DNA of 64,000 nucleotides from contig OX597831.1 in assembly GCA_951406725.2 (NCBI GenBank), positions 60,884,001 to 60,948,000 of the forward strand, read 5' to 3'. Within the stretch, counting starts at the first letter, position 1, and each line of letters starts with the position of its first letter. The translations under genes were made by a program, and so were the position numbers. The DNA is from Octopus vulgaris. Its lineage: Eukaryota. This document shows, one piece after another, positions 11,404 through 64,000 of this stretch. The notes under the pieces are model-generated. The model saw only the letters and a program-made list of their open reading frames with translations, had not been told where the DNA came from and did not search any database.

Positions 11404-11437
<34 letters not shown>

Positions 11438-11760
11438 GTTTCTTTATTAGCCAATCAGGGCTGGACACAGATGGGACAAATTACAAAGTAGAGCTTTTCT
11501 TTTTAGGGATAAAAAAAGTGGGGTAGGTTTTCGATCAAAAGGGATCGTAGAAAGGACAAAAAAGAAAAAGAAAGGAAAAAAGAAGAGCAGAAACGATGAA
11601 TAGGGATCGTGTATCACAGAAATGTCATGATGTAAAGTGTAAAGGGGGAAGCAGATAAGGATTATCCATGGAAAGAAAAACCTACGGAAACGACCACGGT
11701 AACCTCGGACATTAATGTCACATGTTAACACATTTATTTCAAGTAACTCTCTGTTTTAAG
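11438..11760 (-). mobile_element. 3' UTR fragment of an L1/Tx1-like LINE
   Basis: tttctttattagccaatcagggctggacacagatgggacaaa resembles the 3' end at 47440. Confidence 0.4.
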
Positions 11761-14825: not shown

Positions 14826-15422
14826 TGCAAGCTGCCGCCTTCGTTTGACACGAATATTATGATACTTATTCAAGCAATGTCATTTGAAAACGTGTGGCCC
14901 GTTATAATGTAAGAGTTTTATATCATTTTACGTAAAAACTACATTAATAGTTATAGATGATTTTCTTAAAGGAATTGCGATATTACTGTAACACGTAAAT
15001 AATTATTTATTCAGTGGGAAGTGAAGAAGGTGGAATGGATTCGAGGGATGTATCAGCTACAATAATGTACTGAATTTTTCCTCATTTCAATTTAAGCTTC
15101 CTTTGATCTTCTGTAGCAGGATTTTAAAGATGATAATATAAATAGCGGTAACATATTTAATTTTAGCTGTTTCATATAATATCTTCACATGATGTAGCTT
15201 TTAATCTCAAGGAATATTTAAAAAAATTCCAATCTGGGCTACGGATTTCAGAGTTGTTAAGACATTCGTGTTTGGAAAAATGCATTACTTAATTAAGATT
15301 CATGCCGGAACGAAATTTCTCTGAATTTCTTTCGAAGAAAACTTGTATTTACCACAGCCTTTGGTCATATTATAAATATGCTTTTTTAAAATATATACAT
15401 TATAGGCTTTGAAACTAAATGG

Positions 15423-15859
15423 GGATCTTTTCGGTTTGAACGGCAGTTTTTAACATAATTTCTAGGTAACTAAAACATTTTAAACTTCGTATACTAGTAG
15501 AATGTGTTTATAAAACATCTTTTTCTCTTGGTTTTATTGAGAGAATTCTATAATTTGTAAGATATTTGTTGTTTTTTTCTTCAATTTCTGCAATTTCAAC
15601 CAATCAGTGACGTCTATTGAGTTAAAATGCATTCTGTGCCGTATGAATATGTCCATCGTTTAAGAAACAGATTGGGTTTATTTACATTTGTGAAGAAAAA
15701 ACGATGCCCTTCCCCCACCCCTAACCCTAACTCTAACCCTAACTAACCCTAACCCTACAAGAGATTGAAATGCAATAGATAGATTCTAGGCTCATAATTA
15801 TGGGTGACAATTTTATATGACACCGCTAGAAAAAACTGCCGCTCAAACCGAAAAGATCC
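15423..15859 (-). mobile_element. Non-autonomous DNA transposon (Merlin-like MITE) with internal (CCCTAA)n
   Basis: ~29 bp TIRs ggatcttttcggtttgaacggcagttttt / aaaaactgccgctcaaaccgaaaagatcc; exact 8-bp TSD ctaaatgg; strand is relative to the 18 kb copy. Confidence 0.85.
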
Positions 15860-16935
15860 CTAAATGGAAATGTGAAAGGGAAATATTTTCAAACCAAATT
15901 CGATATCCAGACGCCAATGCCTATTACTAGCTACTTAGCTACTCCAAAAATACTGAGGCTGAACTTAATAACGAGGATAAATTATTTAGCCTCATTACCA
16001 TATAGTACTGACTTCGAAGATTTAGTTTCACCGAAGAATTCAAAGAGAGAATAAATTATCTGGGATATCAATTGCTCACATCCAACACACACGGATGTGA
16101 AATTGAGTCAGTACTGCAATGAATCAAAATACGTGAAATATAGTTTTCTACGCTAACAAGATCACGAGAAATTGGTGAATTGTATAGAATTATACATTAC
16201 ATTGTGCAAACTGATTAACGCAAGAGGAGAGTGGTTGTTAGGAGATAAGTTTCTTGGTGAGAGACCGAAAATTTTGGGCTATCATTAAGTAGACAAAACT
16301 AACAATATAATTTTCTTCGAGATCGTTGATTGACCAATTACTTCGAATTTTCTAAGAATAATTATTGAACATTAACATGGGACAGTATTGTCATGATCGT
16401 TTTATATGTATATTATCTGTATTAAATCTGATGGAAAACGAATTAAAAGTGAGATTTGTCTTCAGGTAAATTTCAGTTCTTCCCTTAGGACGCGTGTATT
16501 GAATCGAACAAAATTGGTTTCAATTATATCTCTAATTGATGTATTCCAGTTAGGAAAGTGTGCATGTTATTTACCATTAAATAATATGACGTACTTAATT
16601 GTTTTGCATTACGAGGAATGACATCTAAAATGATAAAATATACTAGGTAATCATAAGAAGTGTAGATATAATTAATCACATATGATGTAATTTAGCTACA
16701 ACGTATGCTGAGTTTTAAACCCATACATTTATTGAGAGAAATAAGATATATATGATAAATGCATCAAGAATATTTGTTGCTTTCGAAAAACGAGATTTTA
16801 AATTCGTGCCTTTTACAAAATGAAATCATTCAGTGAAGCTGAAAACAGCGAAGCAAAGAACACAAAGTATAATATATCTCAAACTGAAGAACTGTATTAA
16901 AAAAATAAAAATGCGTGTGGGATGAACACTTATAT

Positions 16936-17352
16936 ATTTCTTTACTACCCACAAGGGGCTAAACACAGAGGGGACAAACAAGGACAGCCAAACTGATTAA
17001 GTCGATTACATCTACCCCAGTGCGTAACTGGTATTTAATTTATCGACTCCGAAAGGATGAAAGGCAAAGTCGACCTCGGCGGAATTTGAACTCAGAACGT
17101 AATGACAGACAAAACACCTACTTCTTTACTACCCGCAAGGGGCTAAACACAGAGGGGACAAACAAGGACAGACAATGGGATTAAGTCGATTACATCGACC
17201 CCAGTGCGTACCTGGTACTTAATTTATCGACCCCGAAAGGATGAAAGGCAGAGTCGACCTCGGCTGAATTGGAACCCAGAACATAACGGCAGACGAAATA
17301 CGGCTACGCATTTCGCCCGGCATGCTAACGTTTCTGCCAGCTCGCCGCCTTT
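16936..17352 (-). mobile_element. SINE family B with tandem duplication of its 3' part
   Basis: tRNA-like head at the right end; cctttcatcctttcggggtcgataaattaagtacc central domain (MetaSINE-like); 18-bp TSD tgggatgaaca(c/t)ttatat. Confidence 0.88.
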
Positions 17353-18067
17353 TGGGATGAACATTTATATGTTCATCGACAACTAACATGTCAAATCAAT
17401 TGCGTGATGGCATCTCAGCGAGATAAAAAAAAACAATATGTATGTGTTTGTGAGAGTGAGGGAGAGAGGAAGAATTGAGAGAGATAATCTCGCATCGCCA
17501 AAAACATACGCATGCTCTTATGTACAAATGGCTAAATTATTGTGTTAATTTACGAGGGGCTGGATAATCCACTGACATATTTTCCTTGTCATAAATCTCA
17601 AGTAGAACCCGAATGGCACACCGTGATAATTCAGGGCTTTTGAAAATCCAAATTATTCTGAGTTTCACTGGAGAGTTTGGATTTCTGTGAACTCAGATTC
17701 TCTGATAAGTCGTGGGTCGACACGAGGATAATGTAAACTTGCTTGTAAACGATTATTATATTCGTATGTGTATATTCATATGTATACTTTAAGTGAGTAT
17801 ATATGTTTCTATTCATATGTATACATTAAATAGGTAGGGCCATAAAACTTATTCGGAGATATGTCGATATTGAATAGTTCAAGACGGGACCTGTCTCAAG
17901 CGATATGAAACTAGAATTATTTGACTTCTGGATGTTCTCTCAGTGGAGTATAAATATATAGGATTTGGTGAGTATATACACCAATCTCCATAAATATATG
18001 TCCACTGATTCCAGTATATACAAGGACGGTTAACACCAGAAAAAGTATTATCGAAAGTGTAAAATAT

Positions 18068-18519
18068 GGATCTTTTCGGTCTGAACGGCAGTTTTTCTAG
18101 CGATGTCATATGAAATTGTCATAATTATGACCCTAATATCGATCTATTGCATTTCAATCTGTTTTAGGGTTAGGGTTAGAGTTAGGGTTAGGGTTAGGAT
18201 TAGAGTTAGGGTTAGGGTTAGGGGTGGGGGAGGTTATGTTTTTTTCTTCAGAAATGTAAATAAACCCAATCTGCTTCTTAAACGAGAGACATATTCATAC
18301 GCCACAGAATGTTTTTTTATCTCAATGGACGTCAGTGATTAGTTGAAATTGCAGAAATTGAAGAAAAAAACAACAAATATCTTACAAACTATAGAATTTT
18401 CTCAATAAAGCCAAGAGAAAAAGATTTTTTATAAACACATTCTACCAGTATACGAAGTTTAAAAGTGTTTAGTTACGTGGAAATTATTTTAAAAACTGCC
18501 GGTCAAACCGAAAAGATCC
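18068..18519 (+). mobile_element. Merlin-like MITE with internal (TTAGGG)n
   Basis: Same TIRs as 15423-15859, inverted relative to it; 8-bp TSD taaaatat/tgaaatat. Confidence 0.85.
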
Positions 18520-19005
18520 TGAAATATTTTTATATAAGAAGGTTTAACAAATTGCGTGTTATTCCCATATGCTCTGTGTCGTTCATGTTGGCTGAAAGAT
18601 TAAAATGTTCGACTGAAAGAGGAAAAATGCCTTAAGTATTTATGGAGGCGTTATACAGACTGCTAATTAATCACGGAAGGTGAGAGTTGAAGGAAGTATT
18701 TTAAAATTGGTCGATTGTGAATACTTATTGAAATCAACAATAGGAAATGCTAATGCATAAACCTGTGCCAATAGGTGTACGCATGTGTTTGCAGGCTAAT
18801 GTGTGAGTGTAAATATTTCCGGTAGTAAACTTAAAAGAAGTTGTTTTTTACTTATGCAATGAACTTTAGTTATACATTTATGTAAGGTTGGCCTGTTTCT
18901 TTTTGTTTTTGTTTTACGTGTTTTTTAATTTTTATAAAAGAAAAATGCTAAGACTCATGACCTAGTTCAATAAATATATCATAAATTACTAGTGTAATTA
19001 CTATA

Positions 19006-35231: not shown

Positions 35232-35602
35232 TATTTCTTTACTACCCACAAGGAGCTAAACACAGAGAGGACAAACAAGGACAGACAAACGGAGTAAGTC
35301 GATTATATAGACCCCAGTACGTAAGTGGTACTTATTTAATCGACCCCGAAAGAATGAAAGGCAAAGTCGACCTCGGCGGAATTTGTACTCAGAACGTAGC
35401 GGCAGACGAAATATCTATTTCTTTACTACCCACAGTTGATTATATCGGCCCCAGTGCGTAACTGATGCTTAATTTATCGACCCCGAAAGGATGAAAGGCA
35501 AAGTCGACCTCGGCGGAATTTGATCTCAGAACATAACGGCAGACGAAATACCGCTAAGCATTTCGCCCGGCGTGCTGACGTTTCTGTCAGCTCGCCGCCT
35601 TA
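35232..35602 (-). mobile_element. SINE family B with partial tandem duplication
   Basis: Exact 18-bp TSD tgttgttgcaacaatacc (35214-35231 / 35603-35620). Confidence 0.9.
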
Positions 35603-41940: not shown

Positions 41941-42171
41941 TATTTCTTTACTACCCACAAGGAGCTAAACACAGAGGGGACAAACAAGGACAAATAAAGG
42001 GATTAAGTCGATTATATCGAACAAGTGCATAACTGGTACTTAATTTATCGACCACGAAAGGATGAAAGGCAATGTCAACCTCGGCGAAATTTGAACTCAG
42101 AACGTAACGACAGACAAATACCGCTAAGCATTTCGCCCGTGGCGCTAACGTTTCAGCCAGCTCGGCGCCTT
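41941..42171 (-). mobile_element. SINE family B, monomeric full length
   Basis: TSD gtgtcataa(t/c)ata; matches the 16.9 and 35.2 kb copies. Confidence 0.88.
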
Positions 42172-46188: not shown

Positions 46189-46429
46189 GAGTGTGTATAT
46201 TTGTATGTATATTCGTGTGTATGTATGCATGGGAGTGAGAGATCCGCCTATGCTTCTTTACACATCTTCCTAGCAGAAAGAAATTCCGTAATCTTGGTAT
46301 TGCAAGTTTCTTGAATACTTGGTTTTGTTGGCGTGAGTCTGAGAAGTGTTGTCAAGTTGACAAGTTGTTACAGACTAGAAACATCAGCTCTAGCATTGCT
46401 GAAAGATATTTTGCCATAAATTGATCACA

Positions 46430-47438
46430 ATATATTTCAACAATGCGGAAAATTTATTCATCAAAGCAAGTATCATTGCCATCGACACAATTTTTACCAA
46501 CGAGTTACAAGTTTGTTTATTCCGGTAATATATAAAATCTGGAGTTCTGGAGCTGATGAACTCTTTGAATGTACTTTCAGCATCAGCTTGATGCTTAAAT
46601 TCCTTCTCTCGCAGGAAACCATCAAGTTTCTTGAAAAAGTGGTAGTCGGTAGAAGAAATGTCTGGAGAATAATCTGGGGTGGAAAAACTTGGTAGCCAAA
46701 ATTCCTCAACTTCTATTGACCAGTCCGTGTCGGAGGAGTGGCGGTTTTTCGTTGATTTTGACAAATTCATAGCAATATGTTTCTGCAGTAATTGTTTTTC
46801 CGGGTTTTAAGAAATTATAGTGAATGAGTCCAACAGTACACAACGAAGCAATCACTATAACCTTCTTTTTGAAGAGCTCGGGTTTAGGGAAAGTTTTCGG
46901 TACTTCATTTTGCACCAACCACTGTGAAGAACGTTTGTTTTTATTACTGTACAGAATCCGTTTTTCATAGCAAGTTACAATACGGTCGAGAAATGGGTCC
47001 GTTCTGGTTAAGGGGAAAGAGCGACAAGCAAACTTAATATCTGCGCATTTTCTGATTTTCATTTAAATAGTGTGGTATCAATTCGTCGAGCCTTTTTTAT
47101 TTTACAAGGACATGCAAATGGTTGCAGGCAGTTTTCTGACTAACTCGATGTTCTTTTGCCAGTTCTCGAGTGGTTTATGTGGATCTCTGTCAATGACGTT
47201 CTTTAATTGACTGCCATCGACGACTGATGGGCATCCACTACGCTCACGATCTTCAAAAACTCAGGTCTCCATGCGAATTCGTTTAAACCATTTTCGAGCT
47301 GACCACTCACTGATCATTTCCTCACCAAACGTTTTGTTCATATCGCAAGCAGTTTCAGTTGCTTTACGTCCTTTTATGAAGTAGACAGCAAAATTGCTCG
47401 AATATTGACCTTCGGCAGTCCAGATGATTGTAACAACG
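46430..47438 (-). pseudogene. Mariner (Tc1/mariner, D,D34D-type) transposase relic
   Basis: KGRKATETA..TFGE HTH, FLDRIVTCYEK, GLIHYNFLKPGKTITAETY, YSPDISSTDYHFF. Confidence 0.9.
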
Positions 47439-47439
47439 A

Positions 47440-49186
47440 TTTCTTTATTGCCCACAGGGGGCTAAACATAGAGGGACAGTACAAAGATGGACAACAACTC
47501 ACAAGTGGGGAAAAATAAAACGAATGAGAAGGATAGTATAAAAAATGAATGCAGTACATGGAGGCTATTCGGATCCCACAATCCAAGTAACCGAGTTGAA
47601 ACATTTTAAAAACAATTCAATCATTTAATAATCACTTAATGTATCCATGTTAAATTCTTTTAAAAGTTCATGATGGCTTACCGTTGACTGCATTCCCTTA
47701 GTATCAATTTACGTTTGTCCCGTAATTCTCACTTAATCTTTGCGAGTTCTTTCTGTCCATTAACACACATTTAACATGCGAGAGCACTCCCTCAAACCCT
47801 TTAATATCAACTTTTATCAACACGTCCTGATTATTTCCTCGCATATCTCATCGAATGACTCACCGTGGAAAACAATGCAACTTTTTTCACAGGATGTGGG
47901 TTGGGAAATTTAGGGCTCCTGTGTATTTGTAGTTAAAGTATCATTGTCTGGTGAGGTTGGGTGAGAGTTGGTGCCTTCAGGGTGAGGGTGTGGCATAGTG
48001 GAGAGGGTGGTGTTCGCATGGGTGTAGGATGGGGGCTAACATTAATTCCCTAATTTCTCTTTTTTGTCCGGCGTACCGGCTTCCATTTTTCTGTTTTATC
48101 TTCCTTTATTTGTGACTCTTTCCTAACCTCCTTGCCGGGCTCCTCCACACACCCTCCAGTATCACTTGTCATTTCAGGAGGTGGTGGCGCGATTTTCTGT
48201 CGGGCCTGTAGTACTACTGTTTCTTTTTTGTTTTGTTTTTTTGGTCGGCGGAGAACACTCTACTCTTATGTGGCCTTTCTCTCCACGTTTATAACACCGG
48301 AGCTTCCTACCCTTCACTACAACTCGTAATATCACCTCCTCACCCACCGTTATAGTGTCAACCATACGTTCAAGGTCCTACAGAGAAGACTGGATTATTT
48401 TGTCTAGGGTCTGCTCTTGCCAATTCTTCAGTGGCGTTCTCGTTACTTGGAGGACCTGTACCTTAAATTCTACACCCCGCAGTATTGCAGCCACCAGTCA
48501 GGCGACATCTACCTCCAGGGAAATATCTTTCACCCTTACTCTGGAAGCACGACTTCCAAGGTAAGTAGGCAGGAGTATTACCTGAGTAAGTAGGCAGGAG
48601 TATTACACAGTTGCGTATTTCTCCCTCTGGCAAGGCAGGTGACATCCTGCCAGACGGGTCTCAATGCCTTCTTAACTTGTTGTTTTGACACTATCTCCAA
48701 TCTCTTTGCATCCAGACTATAGTTTCTATATATTATTGTCTTTTTTACATGTCCTTTGCAACTGTACTAGAGTGTGGTGGGGATCACTTTTACTTCGTGC
48801 CCCTCCCTTCGCAGGATATATCCCTGTATTTCTTCCACTCCATCTTCTTAAAACAAATTTCTTCTTTGGTTTCAACAGCCGCCGGTGCAAAGTTCATTTA
48901 TTTTCCCACCTTCATTTTTCCCCTCTTCCGGTCTGCAGTAACCACATTTCTCAGTAATTTTTCTTCGGGCGTCGTTATGTCTGGAGAATTTAAATCTTTA
49001 TACATCATTAAGACGTAAGTAATGCGTTTCCCACTTCATAAAATGTGGACAGCGTTAACAAAACTGCCGCAGGACAGTAAAAACACATGTCTCAAGACAC
49101 AGGAAATAATAACAAATATGATTCCAATTCAATAATCTTTGACTTATCTCTCTAACGACGCACAAACAGCATCCACGTCCAAGTCG
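47440..49186 (-). mobile_element. L1/Tx1-like non-LTR element, apparently ORF1-only, with 22-bp TSD
   Basis: LLPTYLGSRASRVRV (RRM-like) and GRKLRCYKRGEKGHIRVEC (degenerate CCHC); 3' end gggcaataaagaaa; flanked by gtccag(a/c)tgattgtaacaacga. Confidence 0.7.
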
Positions 49187-49208
49187 GTCCAGCTGATTGT
49201 AACAACGA

Positions 49209-50268
49209 ATTCTTTGTTGCTCACAGCGAATGCTTTATTGCTCAGGGGATAAATATAGAAGCGACAGTACATATACAAACAAGTACAATGAAAGTGGGCA
49301 GACAAGAATAAAAAGCGGATGTAAGGATGAATAAAAATAAAATAAAATTACAATGAGCAAGGCAATGAAGCCACTCGAGCCCACGTTCTGGCGACTTCAT
49401 TTAACTTTACAATTATACACTTTTTTTCGAAGTTCTATAACATTTTTGTAATTTAAAAAAAATTTAAACATGATAAGCATTACTAAATTCTATTCCAAAC
49501 ATTTGTTTTAACTCAAATTAACTCACCATTATAGATATCTCATTGGCATCGATGTTCCTGGCCACGTATTTAACGTTCTCTTCAGACATTTTTATCGTTC
49601 CGTATATATATAGGGTCAGCTGTAATGCAACTCAGATTCCTGGGCACCTTATCGCTAAGGCATGTTCACTCGTATTATATTGTCCCAGCTATATATTTCA
49701 TTCACAAGCCTGGCATTTGACTCGCCGTTAAAAACGATGTACTTCTCTTTTTTCCTTCTTTCCTCACAGGGCAAGCGTTGAGAAATCTGGAGCTCTTGTG
49801 TGAATGTGCTCATTTTTTCCGTGTCGGGTTACGCAGGGACAGCATTGGTGACTGCAGGGGCAGGGTGGGACAGAGTGGGTTTGGGTGGGTGACAGGTAGG
49901 TATGCGAGGGGATTCATCATTCAGAGGATGCGTCTTCTTCCCTTTCTCTCTTTTCCTTTTCCCCGCTTTTTCCCATTCGTCGTTCTTGTTCCCACCCACC
50001 TCTGCTTCGGCATTGGTTTCTACTGGAGGCGGAGGTGCGGGTTTCCTTCCTGCTCACGGGCTTCGGCGAGTAGTGGAGGACAGGACAGTCTATCCTAATG
50101 TGACCGTTTTGGTCACATTTGTAGCAACGAGGGATCCTGCCCTCCACTCTAACTTTTAATATTACGTCTTCATCTGAGGGCTCATCAAAGAGTGGTTCTC
50201 TTGAGTGATGGGGTGTAGTGTGTGTCTCGATGGGACGGCTATCATCTGTCGAGATTTAACAGTTATCG
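49209..50268 (-). mobile_element. Second, diverged L1/Tx1-like element with CCHC ORF1 fragment
   Basis: MEGRIPRCYKCDQNGHIRIDCP; 3' tail similar to 47440-47600. Confidence 0.7.
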
Positions 50269-50338
<70 letters not shown>

Positions 50339-57388: not shown

Positions 57389-58435
57389 CAGGCTGAGTAA
57401 AGATTAAGCAACATTTTGAAACATGAAATTCATCACAATATATTTCAACAAGGCAGAAATTTTATTCATCAAAGTAAGTACCATTACAATCAAGACATTT
57501 TCCCTGACGGCTTACAAGTTTATATATTCCTCTAACATAGGAGTCTGGATTTCTGTAGCCGATGAACTGTTTCGACGTACCATCAGCCTCGGTTTGATTT
57601 TTGAACTCCTCTTGCAAGAAAACCAACAATGTGATTGAAAAAGTGGTAGTCGGTAAAACAAAGGACTAGGGAACAAGCTGTGTGGGGAATTTGTAGCTAA
57701 GCTCCTTCAACTTTTGGAGCGTCATTATTGAAACGTGGGGTCGATCATTGTTATTACGAATTATTGGTCGCCTTCTGTTGATCAGTCTTGGACGGAGAAG
57801 TAGCAGTATTTCGTTCATTTTGGCAATTTCATAGGAATATGTTTCTACAGTAATGGTTTTCTGGGTTTTAAGATGTTATAGCGAATGAATCCAGCATTAC
57901 ACCACCAATCAGTCACCAGAACCTCTTTTTTGAAGAGCTTAGGTTTAGGGAAGGTTTGCATTTTTCAAGGTGCTTCATTATGATCCAACCACTGCGAAGT
58001 ACTTGTTTTATTATTGTACAGAAATTGATTGGTCTGGTTACAGAGAAGAAGCGGCGAGCAAATTTCGTTTCTGCGCTTTTCCTGATTTTCATTCACAACA
58101 TTTGTTAAACTGTTTTGATTTTCCGGTCGCATGCAAATGGTGCAGTCATTTTCTTTTGCCAGTTCTCGGGGATTTTTACGTGGCTCTTTCACAATGACGG
58201 TCTTTAATTGACCGTCATCGATGACCGATGGGCGTCCATTACGGTTACGATCATCAAGGCTCAGGTCTCCACTGCGAGATCGTTTGAACCATTTTTGAAC
58301 TGATCATTCACTGGTCATTTTTTCACCAAAGGTTTCGTTCATATCACGAGCAGTTTCAGTTGCTTTACGTCCCTTTTTGAAGTTGAATAGTAAAACTGCT
58401 CGAATACTGCTTACATTTCAGTTGATTGTAACAAA
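57389..58435 (-). pseudogene. Second mariner relic, related to 46430-47438
   Basis: Colinear similarity (gaagagct.ggtttaggga, gcagtttcagttgctttacgtcc, gaaaaagtggtagtcggta). Confidence 0.85.
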
Positions 58436-58739
58436 GGTGAAAAAATATCAATTGATATATTTGGGCAATTCTATATGTATGTTATCAGATATTTCAAAAA
58501 TACATTCAGTATTATATATATATATATATATCGGTTACCGTCTACCAAATCAACTCTCAAGCTTTTCATCTGCCCGAGGCTACAGTAGAAGACACCTGCT
58601 GATGGTGGCACGCGGCGTAAAGACGATTAGCACAGGGTGATCGTGAACTCTGCTGTGCTTGCGCACTACGTTTTAGCCTTCTAACTAACTCCCTCTGTTT
58701 ACAGCAGTGCTTGGAAAGAACGTGTGTAGCGTGTAATCG

Positions 58740-58915
58740 TCGCATTAATCATGACAAAAAAAAGTTGTCATGGTGATACCTGCTCAGAGGCCTACTCAAA
58801 GTTGCAGAAAGTGTATGGGTATGGAGAGGATTATATGAACCACAGCCAAGTGTATGAGTGGTTCAGACGTATCCAAGGTTGTCGAAATCATGTCGATATT
58901 GACAAGCGCTTTACA
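58740..58915 (+). pseudogene. Mariner N-terminal HTH fragment (different family)
   Basis: TCSEAYSKLQKVYG..YMNHSQVYEWFRR. Confidence 0.7.
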
Positions 58916-59004
58916 ACAGAAAATAATACTTTCCTCAGTTACAGATGCTAGGATACTTCCAGAAGTATGTAAGTTCACCTCAACCCTGAAGTCAAAAGAA
59001 ACGC

Positions 59005-59224
59005 TACGAGGAGGTACTGAAAATTTCTTGGCTTTAAGCGTATCATAAATTGCGTGGTTGGAGGCCCAACTTCCCGAATTCTTTACATGGCTTAGAAAAG
59101 CAGAAGGACCGCTAGAGTAAGTGTGTAAACCTGAGATGGGAATGTGACGAAGAAATTCATAATCAGCTGTTCCCCCGGTATTTTGTTTTACTCAAAATCA
59201 TGAAATGTTTAACACTTCCTCGTA
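59005..59224. mobile_element. Mariner-derived MITE
   Basis: Imperfect TIRs tacgaggaggtactgaaaatttc / gaaatgtttaacacttcctcgta with TA ends. Confidence 0.6.
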
Positions 59225-62007: not shown

Positions 62008-62775
62008 TTAATATTTCTTGCTTTTCTTTTGGAGTGAGTTTCTCTGTATAAGAATGTTGGAATGGTTAAGTTTGGGCTTGTATTTTTCAATGAAGAATGT
62101 TTCCTTGTTTAGTCTAATTTGTGTTGGTGTTCCGATAGCACATTGGTAGAATGGAAAGATTAAAAATTGTGGTAGTAGTTGCTTTGCGCATTTCTCAATG
62201 TGCTCACTAAAGAGTATCATTCTGGGTTCTGGGAATGCAATATGTTGTCGATGCAGTGTGCATCTACGTCTGAGTGATAGTCCCGTGGATCCCACGTAGT
62301 CTTGGTGGCAGCCCGAGCATTTTATGACATAAATTATGTTTTCAGAAGCACAAGTAAAATTAGATTTGATCTTGAATTTATGTCCTTCTTTGAAGAGGAA
62401 TTCTGATCCTTCTAGCAGGTTTGGACATGTTGTACAGTTCGGTCTACCACATTTTTTTACTTTTGCATCCGTAATTTCAGAAAACAATTTTGCCTTTGTG
62501 AGAATCTTTTTATGTGATTTAGGTTGTTTGTAGCTTTTAATGATTTGGTGTATGTTTAGAATTTCCTTTAATTTGGGGTCCTTATGAAGTATTGGTAAAT
62601 TCTGGGTGATGATGGTGAAGGCTTTGTTTCTGGGGTTGTATGTGGATATGTAAAGTAGTATTTTCGGGGAAGGTGTATTGTTGTGTTGAACTTTTCTTAA
62701 AGTTTCTATGTTGATTTCTGTTGCACGTCTGATCCCATCCTCTATGAGTTGAGCTGGGTAATGTCTGTCACTTAG
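62008..62775 (-). mobile_element. 5'-truncated Penelope-like (Neptune-type) ORF: RT thumb end, Cys-rich linker and GIY-YIG endonuclease
   Basis: Uninterrupted frame: RHYP..LI, CGRPNCTTC, FTCASENIIYVIKCSGCHQDYVGST..RCTLH..EH..R..KE..I..PKLN. Confidence 0.9.
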
Positions 62776-62878
62776 GGTAAACACATAAATGTGAAACAAG
62801 GTGGAAAAAAGAGTACTCAAATACCAGTCGTAGAGTAATATGCTTTATTTAAAGCAGCAGAAAATTCAACAAATAAAG

Positions 62879-63682: not shown

Positions 63683-64000
63683 GGGTCTTTCCGGTTTGAA
63701 CAGCAGTTTTTTCTAGCGCTGTCATATGAAATGGTCGCCCATAATTATGACCCTAGTATCGATCTATTGCATTTCAATCTATTTTAGGGTTAGGGTTAGG
63801 CAGAAGGGTATCTTTTTTCTTCACAAATTTAAATGAACAAAATCTGTTTCTTAAACGAGGGACACATTCATACAGTACAGAATGTTTTCACCTCCATAGA
63901 CGTCAGTGCTTGGTTGAAATTGCAGAAATTGAAGAAAAAAAACAACAAATATCTTACAAACTATAGAATTTTCTCAATAAAGCCAAGAGAAAAAGATGTT
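63683..64000 (+). mobile_element. Third Merlin-like MITE with (TTAGGG)3, cut by the window edge
   Basis: Colinear with 18068-18430. Confidence 0.85.

Follow-up and report, generated by a model that had tools for sequence, protein, structure and literature searches.

Two ORF1-only retroelement remnants in tandem at a single site, 18 bases before the start-codon position of a decayed mariner in Octopus vulgaris

Results

Layout of the locus and its two mariners

The window that we analysed is the whole stretch of 64,000 nucleotides of Octopus vulgaris DNA, and the features described below lie on its minus strand unless another strand is given. In minus-strand order, a (TA)n microsatellite (50269-50336, no strand assigned) is followed by element B (50268-49206), a short spacer, element A (49187-47437), a second copy of the spacer and the decayed mariner M1, with elements and mariner all in the same orientation. 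M1 (46394-47436, the end being approximate) runs from 18 bases before its start-codon position to its 3′ end and lacks the 5′ terminal repeat along with the greater part of the 5′ UTR. A second decayed mariner, M2 (57390-58500), carries the same site empty. Both retain Mos1-type helix-turn-helix (HTH) and DDE transposase domains (Pfam HTH_48 and Transposase_1), with E-values of 2e-08 and 7.6e-13, respectively, in M1, and of 1.9e-14 for HTH_48 in M2. The two copies are identical at 768 of 970 aligned bases (21% difference), and their alignment passes through the spacer to 47436 in M1 and 58434 in M2, where it breaks. The 18 bases at 58417-58434 of M2 have no retroelement beside them and end directly before an ATG at 58414-58416. 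Their counterpart in M1 ends directly before a CTG at 47416-47418, which we assign to the start-codon position because the frame from this CTG leads into the residues at which the HTH profile begins. In a check for terminal inverted repeats, for which M1 offers no 5′ end, the two ends of M2 aligned weakly to each other. A third decayed mariner-like piece, which by eye belongs to another family, adjoins M2 at 58720-59200 on the plus strand.

The repeated spacer and the duplicated unit

The sequence-only reading had reported a 22-mer that occurs twice in the window, each time with the 3′ end of a zinc-knuckle element directly behind it on the plus strand. Both copies are present, at 47418-47439 (1 mismatch) and 49187-49208 (exact), and the tail of a minus-strand zinc-knuckle element adjoins each. 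With up to 3 mismatches allowed, the window contains no other match to the 22-mer, and two or more matches were obtained in 0 of 100 shuffles. A related sequence, noticed earlier at 58419-58434, stands in register in the M1/M2 alignment. When a 19-base core was searched on both strands at up to 5 mismatches, the four matches were the two spacers (0 and 1 mismatch), M2 (3 mismatches) and an unrelated place (5 mismatches).

Taken as the duplicated unit, the whole 22-mer is too long. The mariner-derived part comprises only 18-19 bases (47419-47436, 49188-49205 and 58417-58434), and the remaining three bases at 47437-47439 and at 49206-49208 probably belong to the element tail, because M2 has other letters there and because the two 21-base units at the end of B both terminate in TTCG. 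If the three bases are tail, the duplication would be about 18 bp long (plus or minus one), derived from mariner and present on both sides of A. The objection that the 22-mer is part of the element, which the earlier reading had named against itself, fails for the core and probably applies to the three bases; the candidate explanation that the 22-mer belongs wholly to the element was rejected because the core also occurs in M2.

The copy at 49188-49205, between the tail of B and the head of A, is identical to the copy at 47419-47436 at 17 of 18 positions, and the two share letters at which M1 differs from M2. We read it as the putative target-site duplication of A. Upstream of B, the (TA)n tract forms the left boundary and occupies the place at which one would expect another copy of the target and the 5′ end of the mariner; we searched for both and found neither. 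As a consequence, the insertion of B cannot be closed on the left.

Elements A and B are ORF1-only retroelements

Element A is a near full-length, decayed ORF1-only non-LTR element that has accumulated stops, frameshifts and a 26-bp internal tandem repeat at 48559-48610. Its zinc knuckle (48252-48299) matches zf-CCHC at E=0.26, which is below the cut-off, and the first Cys pair is damaged. Its 3′ tail (47437-47495) is common to B and to an abundant SINE-like repeat described below. Element B is a 5′-incomplete ORF1-only element of another subfamily, the knuckle of which (50082-50129) passes the cut-off (zf-CCHC E=1.1e-05) and the tail of which contains a near-tandem repeat of the last 21 bases (49206-49247). 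The 5′-most 80 bases or so of B (50186-50268) are not clearly ORF1; they constitute a repeat with high contig depth in all four of the sequencing runs examined below.

A Pfam scan of nine frames of A and B detected neither reverse transcriptase (RT) nor endonuclease, which rules out an autonomous element here but leaves room for descent from one. A single ORF1 without ORF2 is clear for A; for B, the match to C-terminal ORF1 was not significant in any of 12 comparisons. The two elements share this short layout and are identical at 547 of 849 aligned bases (~64%, compared with 54% in a control of 10 shuffles), the best-kept part being the knuckle region (59% identity over 29 codons). They are too different to be a recent tandem duplicate, and we rejected that explanation. 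Because copies at other loci match A or B at roughly 80-85%, the two represent separate subfamilies. An LTR element was also rejected, since no LTRs or pol were seen. A and B are thus ORF1-only, or "half", non-autonomous retroelements. The initial description of two L1/Tx1-like elements at the same site was right in that there are two retroelement remnants whose 3′ junctions fall at one nucleotide; it went too far in treating as full LINEs what are ORF1-only pieces with no RT or endonuclease, and their clade can be assigned only indirectly.

The ORF1 belongs to an octopod protein family

At E≤0.001, the best frame of A, with X at two stops, retrieved 146 of 1.84 billion proteins, most of them over the region before the knuckle and a few over the knuckle only. 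Seven of the ten relatives that were looked up carried a species name, and all seven came from Octopus bimaculoides, O. sinensis, O. vulgaris or Argonauta. A and B encode the decayed ORF1 of a large octopod family. In tblastn, long octopod relatives cover 48838-48189 of A, and their alignment to B starts at about 50198. The C-terminus of one relative aligns with 47707-47775 of A, a match seen in 0 of 300 shuffles and the sole clear one in 24 comparisons, so that the ORF1 of A reaches at least 47707, 270 bases from the element end; a profile of six C-terminal ORF1 pieces had no match to A or B. The zinc knuckle was found in 34 of 98 relatives at E≤1.

To place the family structurally, we used the predicted model of a relative, P0014, which is not the window's own protein (mean pLDDT 83). 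The best Foldseek matches of this model were tandem-RRM proteins. Its first domain superposes on nucleolin with a Z-score of 9.0 (rmsd 2.1, 77 aligned residues), and its second matches ferredoxin folds of the ACT/S6 type at about Z 8. The model suggests that the family has the build of a Type I ORF1, with two ferredoxin-like or RRM-like domains and one knuckle. A sequence search of solved structures gave mainly zinc-knuckle matches, and the matches in the ESM Atlas were CCHC proteins (0.92) and a cluster of ZCCHC3 type (0.90, 168 features in common), which we regard as a lead only. One O. bimaculoides gene model, P0097, joins a knuckle of this family to an SNF2 helicase; the join is probably an annotation fusion.

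An autonomous partner with RT and endonuclease was not found in the scan of the relatives, in the metagenome scan or among proteins of 677-2000 aa. Neither domain was present in the 22 relatives scanned, and no relative was found joined to RT. Alignment A5 gave 0 of 7997 among the proteins of 677-2000 aa, a comparison that is weak on ORF1-ORF2 fusions, and in the metagenome scan with this alignment 0 of 45 candidate stretches were confirmed. A word-based protein search was likewise negative for the frame of B (0 of 3 candidates) and for the frame of A among longer proteins (0 of 267).

A SINE-like repeat shares the tail

Over its final 37 bases, A has 86-89% likeness to the tail of a SINE-like repeat that is abundant and may be tRNA-derived; ARAGORN reported 0 tRNAs, and folding of the tails revealed no shared structure. 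The window holds three insertions of this repeat, all on the minus strand and all with an A/B-like tail: one at 16935-17352 with a 17-bp duplication unrelated to the mariner site, one at 35232-35601 with an 18-bp duplication and one at 41941-42170 with a 13-bp duplication. None of the three lies in a mariner. The repeat is dimeric at two of the three loci (16935-17352 and 35232-35601), and one duplication encloses the whole dimer. These mixed flanks indicate that elements with similar tails need not have a target in common. Most simply, there would be more than one partner family with a tail of this kind. The shared tail itself suggests an autonomous partner with a common 3′ end.

A third type of tail, at 11437-11480 on the minus strand, is 79% like the SINE-like tail over 42 bases and is followed by (TA)n. 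It may be the end of another LINE-type family; Pfam found no match in three frames of the 700 bases upstream of it. Two further features of the window were observed. An interspersed repeat is present in three copies about 90% alike (15412-15859, 18065-18530 and 63683-64000, no strand assigned), two of which are inverted 2.7 kb apart. A stop-free frame of 278 codons at 62008-62844 (minus strand) contains motifs that, by eye, presumably represent the GIY-YIG endonuclease of a Penelope-like element.

Contigs from public sequencing runs

We aligned the contigs of 4 of 24 public runs (X2, X4, X7 and X8, with organism labels A-D) to 47050-50268 at 80% likeness; the records listed comprise 24 of 1385 loose ends, 32 of 31809 pieces and 12 of the 30 records that include the X4 joints described below. 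A single X2 contig (3 differences in 863) and another from X4 (11 in 565) span the path from the head of A through the spacer at 49188-49205 to the tail of B. The junction is thus real and common to two organism labels, and an assembly artefact was rejected on this ground. Near-identical pieces of both elements are also present in X7 and X8. Among the 15 of 118 joints listed for the four runs, there was no allele with an empty site or with a single element.

Run X4 contains at least two joints from other loci (2 of the 12 listed among 30), each represented by a single contig at 80% likeness. In these, 12 or 13 variant letters separate an A-like head from the spacer, behind which an A-like tail follows, and one of them carries an M2-type letter in the spacer. 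They appear to be two more tandem head/spacer/tail junctions located elsewhere. At 49169, other letters were found in 3, 8, 3 and 7 contigs in the four runs, including a piece that ends at 49205-49208. If the listed distance is taken as the distance to the end of the piece, at least one other element head per run would be preceded by the spacer; the four runs probably show the same loci in these contigs. A different picture comes from the second X2 record on 47446-47718, which has 41 differences and 17 gaps and continues on the 3′ side with 73 letters that did not align to the target. This relative seems to lack the target.

Overall, a target preference is suggested by the two insertions at a single nucleotide in the window and by the additional spacer junctions in the contigs of the four runs, with one apparent counter-example. 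A putative short-form family is represented by A with its 18-bp duplication; the contigs from other loci cover parts of the same layout, and no whole other copy was seen among them. Loose ends before 47439 numbered 659-1103 per run, with an agreement of only 0.41, which, like the flanks of the three window insertions, speaks against a common target for the SINE-like repeat. The junction pattern had no match in viral contigs. Two matches in metagenome contigs were dismissed as chance, because the DNA that surrounds them resembles that of prokaryotes or phages and contains neither element nor mariner.

Discussion

Proposed insertion in two events at a preferred mariner site

We propose, with a probability of roughly two in three, that A and B were copied into the mariner in two separate events by the RT and endonuclease of a probably Tx1-like partner that prefers this site, so that a tandem array grows. 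The conserved 3′ tail of the ORF1-only RNA would be bound by the partner (trans-mobilisation), which would nick the antisense strand at a point 18 bases upstream of the transposase ATG and begin target-primed reverse transcription there. A second cut in the other strand, at about the ATG, would lead to the duplication of 18 bases. As the 18-mer would survive each insertion, the site could be used again and a tandem array could form. The 5′ part of B and the mariner 5′ end would probably have been lost later. We infer the partner, its cuts and the timing as separate events from what is generally known about non-LTR elements, and either order of insertion of A and B gives the same structure.

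Several observations favour this reading. The 18-mer occurs in M2 with no retroelement and in register with M1. At about 18 bp, the duplication agrees in length with those of the SINE-like insertions that have the tail in common (13-18 bp at the three loci). A sits between nearly identical target copies while A and B themselves have diverged widely, which would suit two events at a preferred site. We also count in its favour the 3′ junctions of A and B at one nucleotide, the X4 joints from other loci, the head pieces with other letters at 49169, the Type I build of the ORF1 family and the crocodilian precedent described below. Against it we count the mixed flanks of the SINE-like repeat, the X2 record that seems to lack the target, the missing left duplication of B, the negative searches for an autonomous partner and the fact that each joint from another locus is a single contig of one run.

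A single event is a reading that we judge to be improbable, if the least so of the alternatives. Here, the RT would have copied A and then switched to the RNA of B, or it would have copied read-through RNA of an existing B-spacer-A array, and the middle 18-mer would derive from an RNA end with mariner sequence; the site preference would be kept and the word "successive" dropped. The 5′-incomplete state of B, its open left side and the failure to see an empty-site or single-element allele among the joints listed for the four runs all fit such an event, and SINEU-2 has described 5′ extensions from flanking mariner in the accessible text of PMC4494074. However, the spacer copies share the letters that distinguish M1 from M2, as expected for a local copy, and the tandem junctions at other loci cannot be copies of the A/B array, since their heads and tails differ.

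Nearly the same low standing is given to a loose preference, under which the start region of mariner would be just one of many suitable sites and the majority of copies would be found in other places. Both the mixed flanks of the SINE-like repeat and the one relative apparently without a target speak for it. In addition, Tc1-mariner elements occupy 119 Mb of the 2.8-Gb O. vulgaris assembly according to the accessible supplement of PMC13282606, so that landings in mariner would be common. By rough reasoning, however, two insertions at one nucleotide, at least two spacer junctions and one head piece that extends across the spacer are too many for this view.

A further reading, which we consider improbable, moves the choice of target from the partner to the ORF1-only element itself. 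Its ORF1 protein, or read-through mariner RNA, would steer an unselective partner to the start codon of the transposase, and the SINE-like repeat, which has a similar tail but encodes no protein, would land anywhere. If this were true, the passengers would also knock out coding mariners at the ATG. The least probable account is hitchhiking of one old chance insertion that spread by mariner transposition and became tandem through recombination across the short duplication: it would place the 18-mer beside many copies without any targeting, and mariner bins are far deeper in contigs than element bins, but the divergence between A and B (about 36%) exceeds that between M1 and M2 (21%), the knuckle is the region best kept between A and B, as would fit a long separate life as retroelements, and recombination over 18 bp is rare.

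Comparison with known systems

The preferred reading, of two insertions by a site-preferring partner, has its closest parallel in crocodilians, where Tx1-Mar families and SINEU insert in Mariner-N4_AMi (PMC4494074). According to the accessible text of that report, 313 of 347 SINEU-3 copies are bordered by Mariner-N4_AMi, often in tandem around one target duplication of about 16 bp, and targeting is accepted when more than 20% of the copies of a family are flanked at the same position. If the preferred reading holds, non-LTR elements would favour fixed mariner sites in both cases, with non-autonomous elements at the same target. Unlike Tx1-Mar and SINEU-3, the passengers described here encode ORF1 and have a cephalopod host, and their putative target is the start codon of a transposase-coding mariner instead of positions near 240 and 830 of the non-autonomous Mariner-N4_AMi. 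The tail-sharing SINE-like repeat, unlike SINEU, does not use the target of its presumed relatives A and B; Tx1-Mar was compared by its description only. By eye, the SINEU-3 duplication printed in the accessible text of PMC4494074 does not resemble the 18-mer.

A fixed site in the DNA transposon Tx1D is targeted by Xenopus Tx1L, as described in the accessible texts of PMC4494074, PMC6719617 and PMC1635306. Going by these descriptions, Tx1L is autonomous, has an APE endonuclease and targets a non-autonomous piggyBac-type element, whereas A and B are ORF1-only with a putative mariner target. ORF1-only non-autonomous LINEs are known as HAL1, HeT-A and Ag-Sponge (PMC5753468, PMC5786205). Like these, as far as they are described there, A and B have one ORF1-type gene and a 3′ end, lack RT and would be moved in trans. 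HAL1, HeT-A and Ag-Sponge derive from mammalian L1, Jockey and CR1, respectively, whereas the ORF1 of A and B is known here only from octopod proteins, and the accessible parts of PMC5753468 and PMC5786205 report no mariner targeting for that group.

Type I ORF1 is described, in the accessible part of PMC5203782, as consistent with Tx1 in non-mammalian animals. The build met here is neither diagnostic of Tx1 nor unique to it, and we infer that the partner is of a Tx1-like clade and carries the endonuclease. Preference for a target sequence is a trait of many Tx1 members. Because the defining RT, which in Tx1-Mar is of a Keno-related lineage, is absent, an assignment of A and B to Tx1-Mar, or even to Tx1 in general, is not justified. 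O. vulgaris has 80 L1-Tx1 families, 13 of them recently active, by the accessible text of PMC13282606, in which we found no statement on their targets.

The sequence-only reading had suggested a possibly undescribed retroelement that targets mariner near its start codon. The mariner DNA at the start codon, its duplication-like arrangement and the same spacer before other heads agree with that suggestion. Its novelty is smaller than was supposed, since mariner targeting is already described for Tx1-Mar and SINEU in crocodilians (PMC4494074, accessible text). Our literature search, which had open papers as its scope and not Repbase, Dfam, the Zenodo library of PMC13282606 or subscription papers, found no mariner-targeting and no ORF1-only Tx1-like element from a cephalopod, and there was no cephalopod case in the accessible texts of PMC3747384, PMC8967140, PMC4758252, PMC10294476, PMC6719617 and PMC1635306 either. 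A and B are likely to be a new, cephalopod, ORF1-only variant of a known mariner-targeting behaviour.

Because this behaviour is already known, our findings extend a known theme and do not open a new one. If genome-wide counts confirm them, they would provide a likely independent case of retroelements landing in mariner, in a mollusc host and with ORF1-only passengers. They would also supply a new target whose endonuclease could be characterised, and a LINE-type candidate for the origin of the tail in the abundant octopus SINE-like repeat. By comparing targeted ORF1-only elements with an untargeted repeat of similar tail, one can test directly whether the endonuclease alone sets the target.
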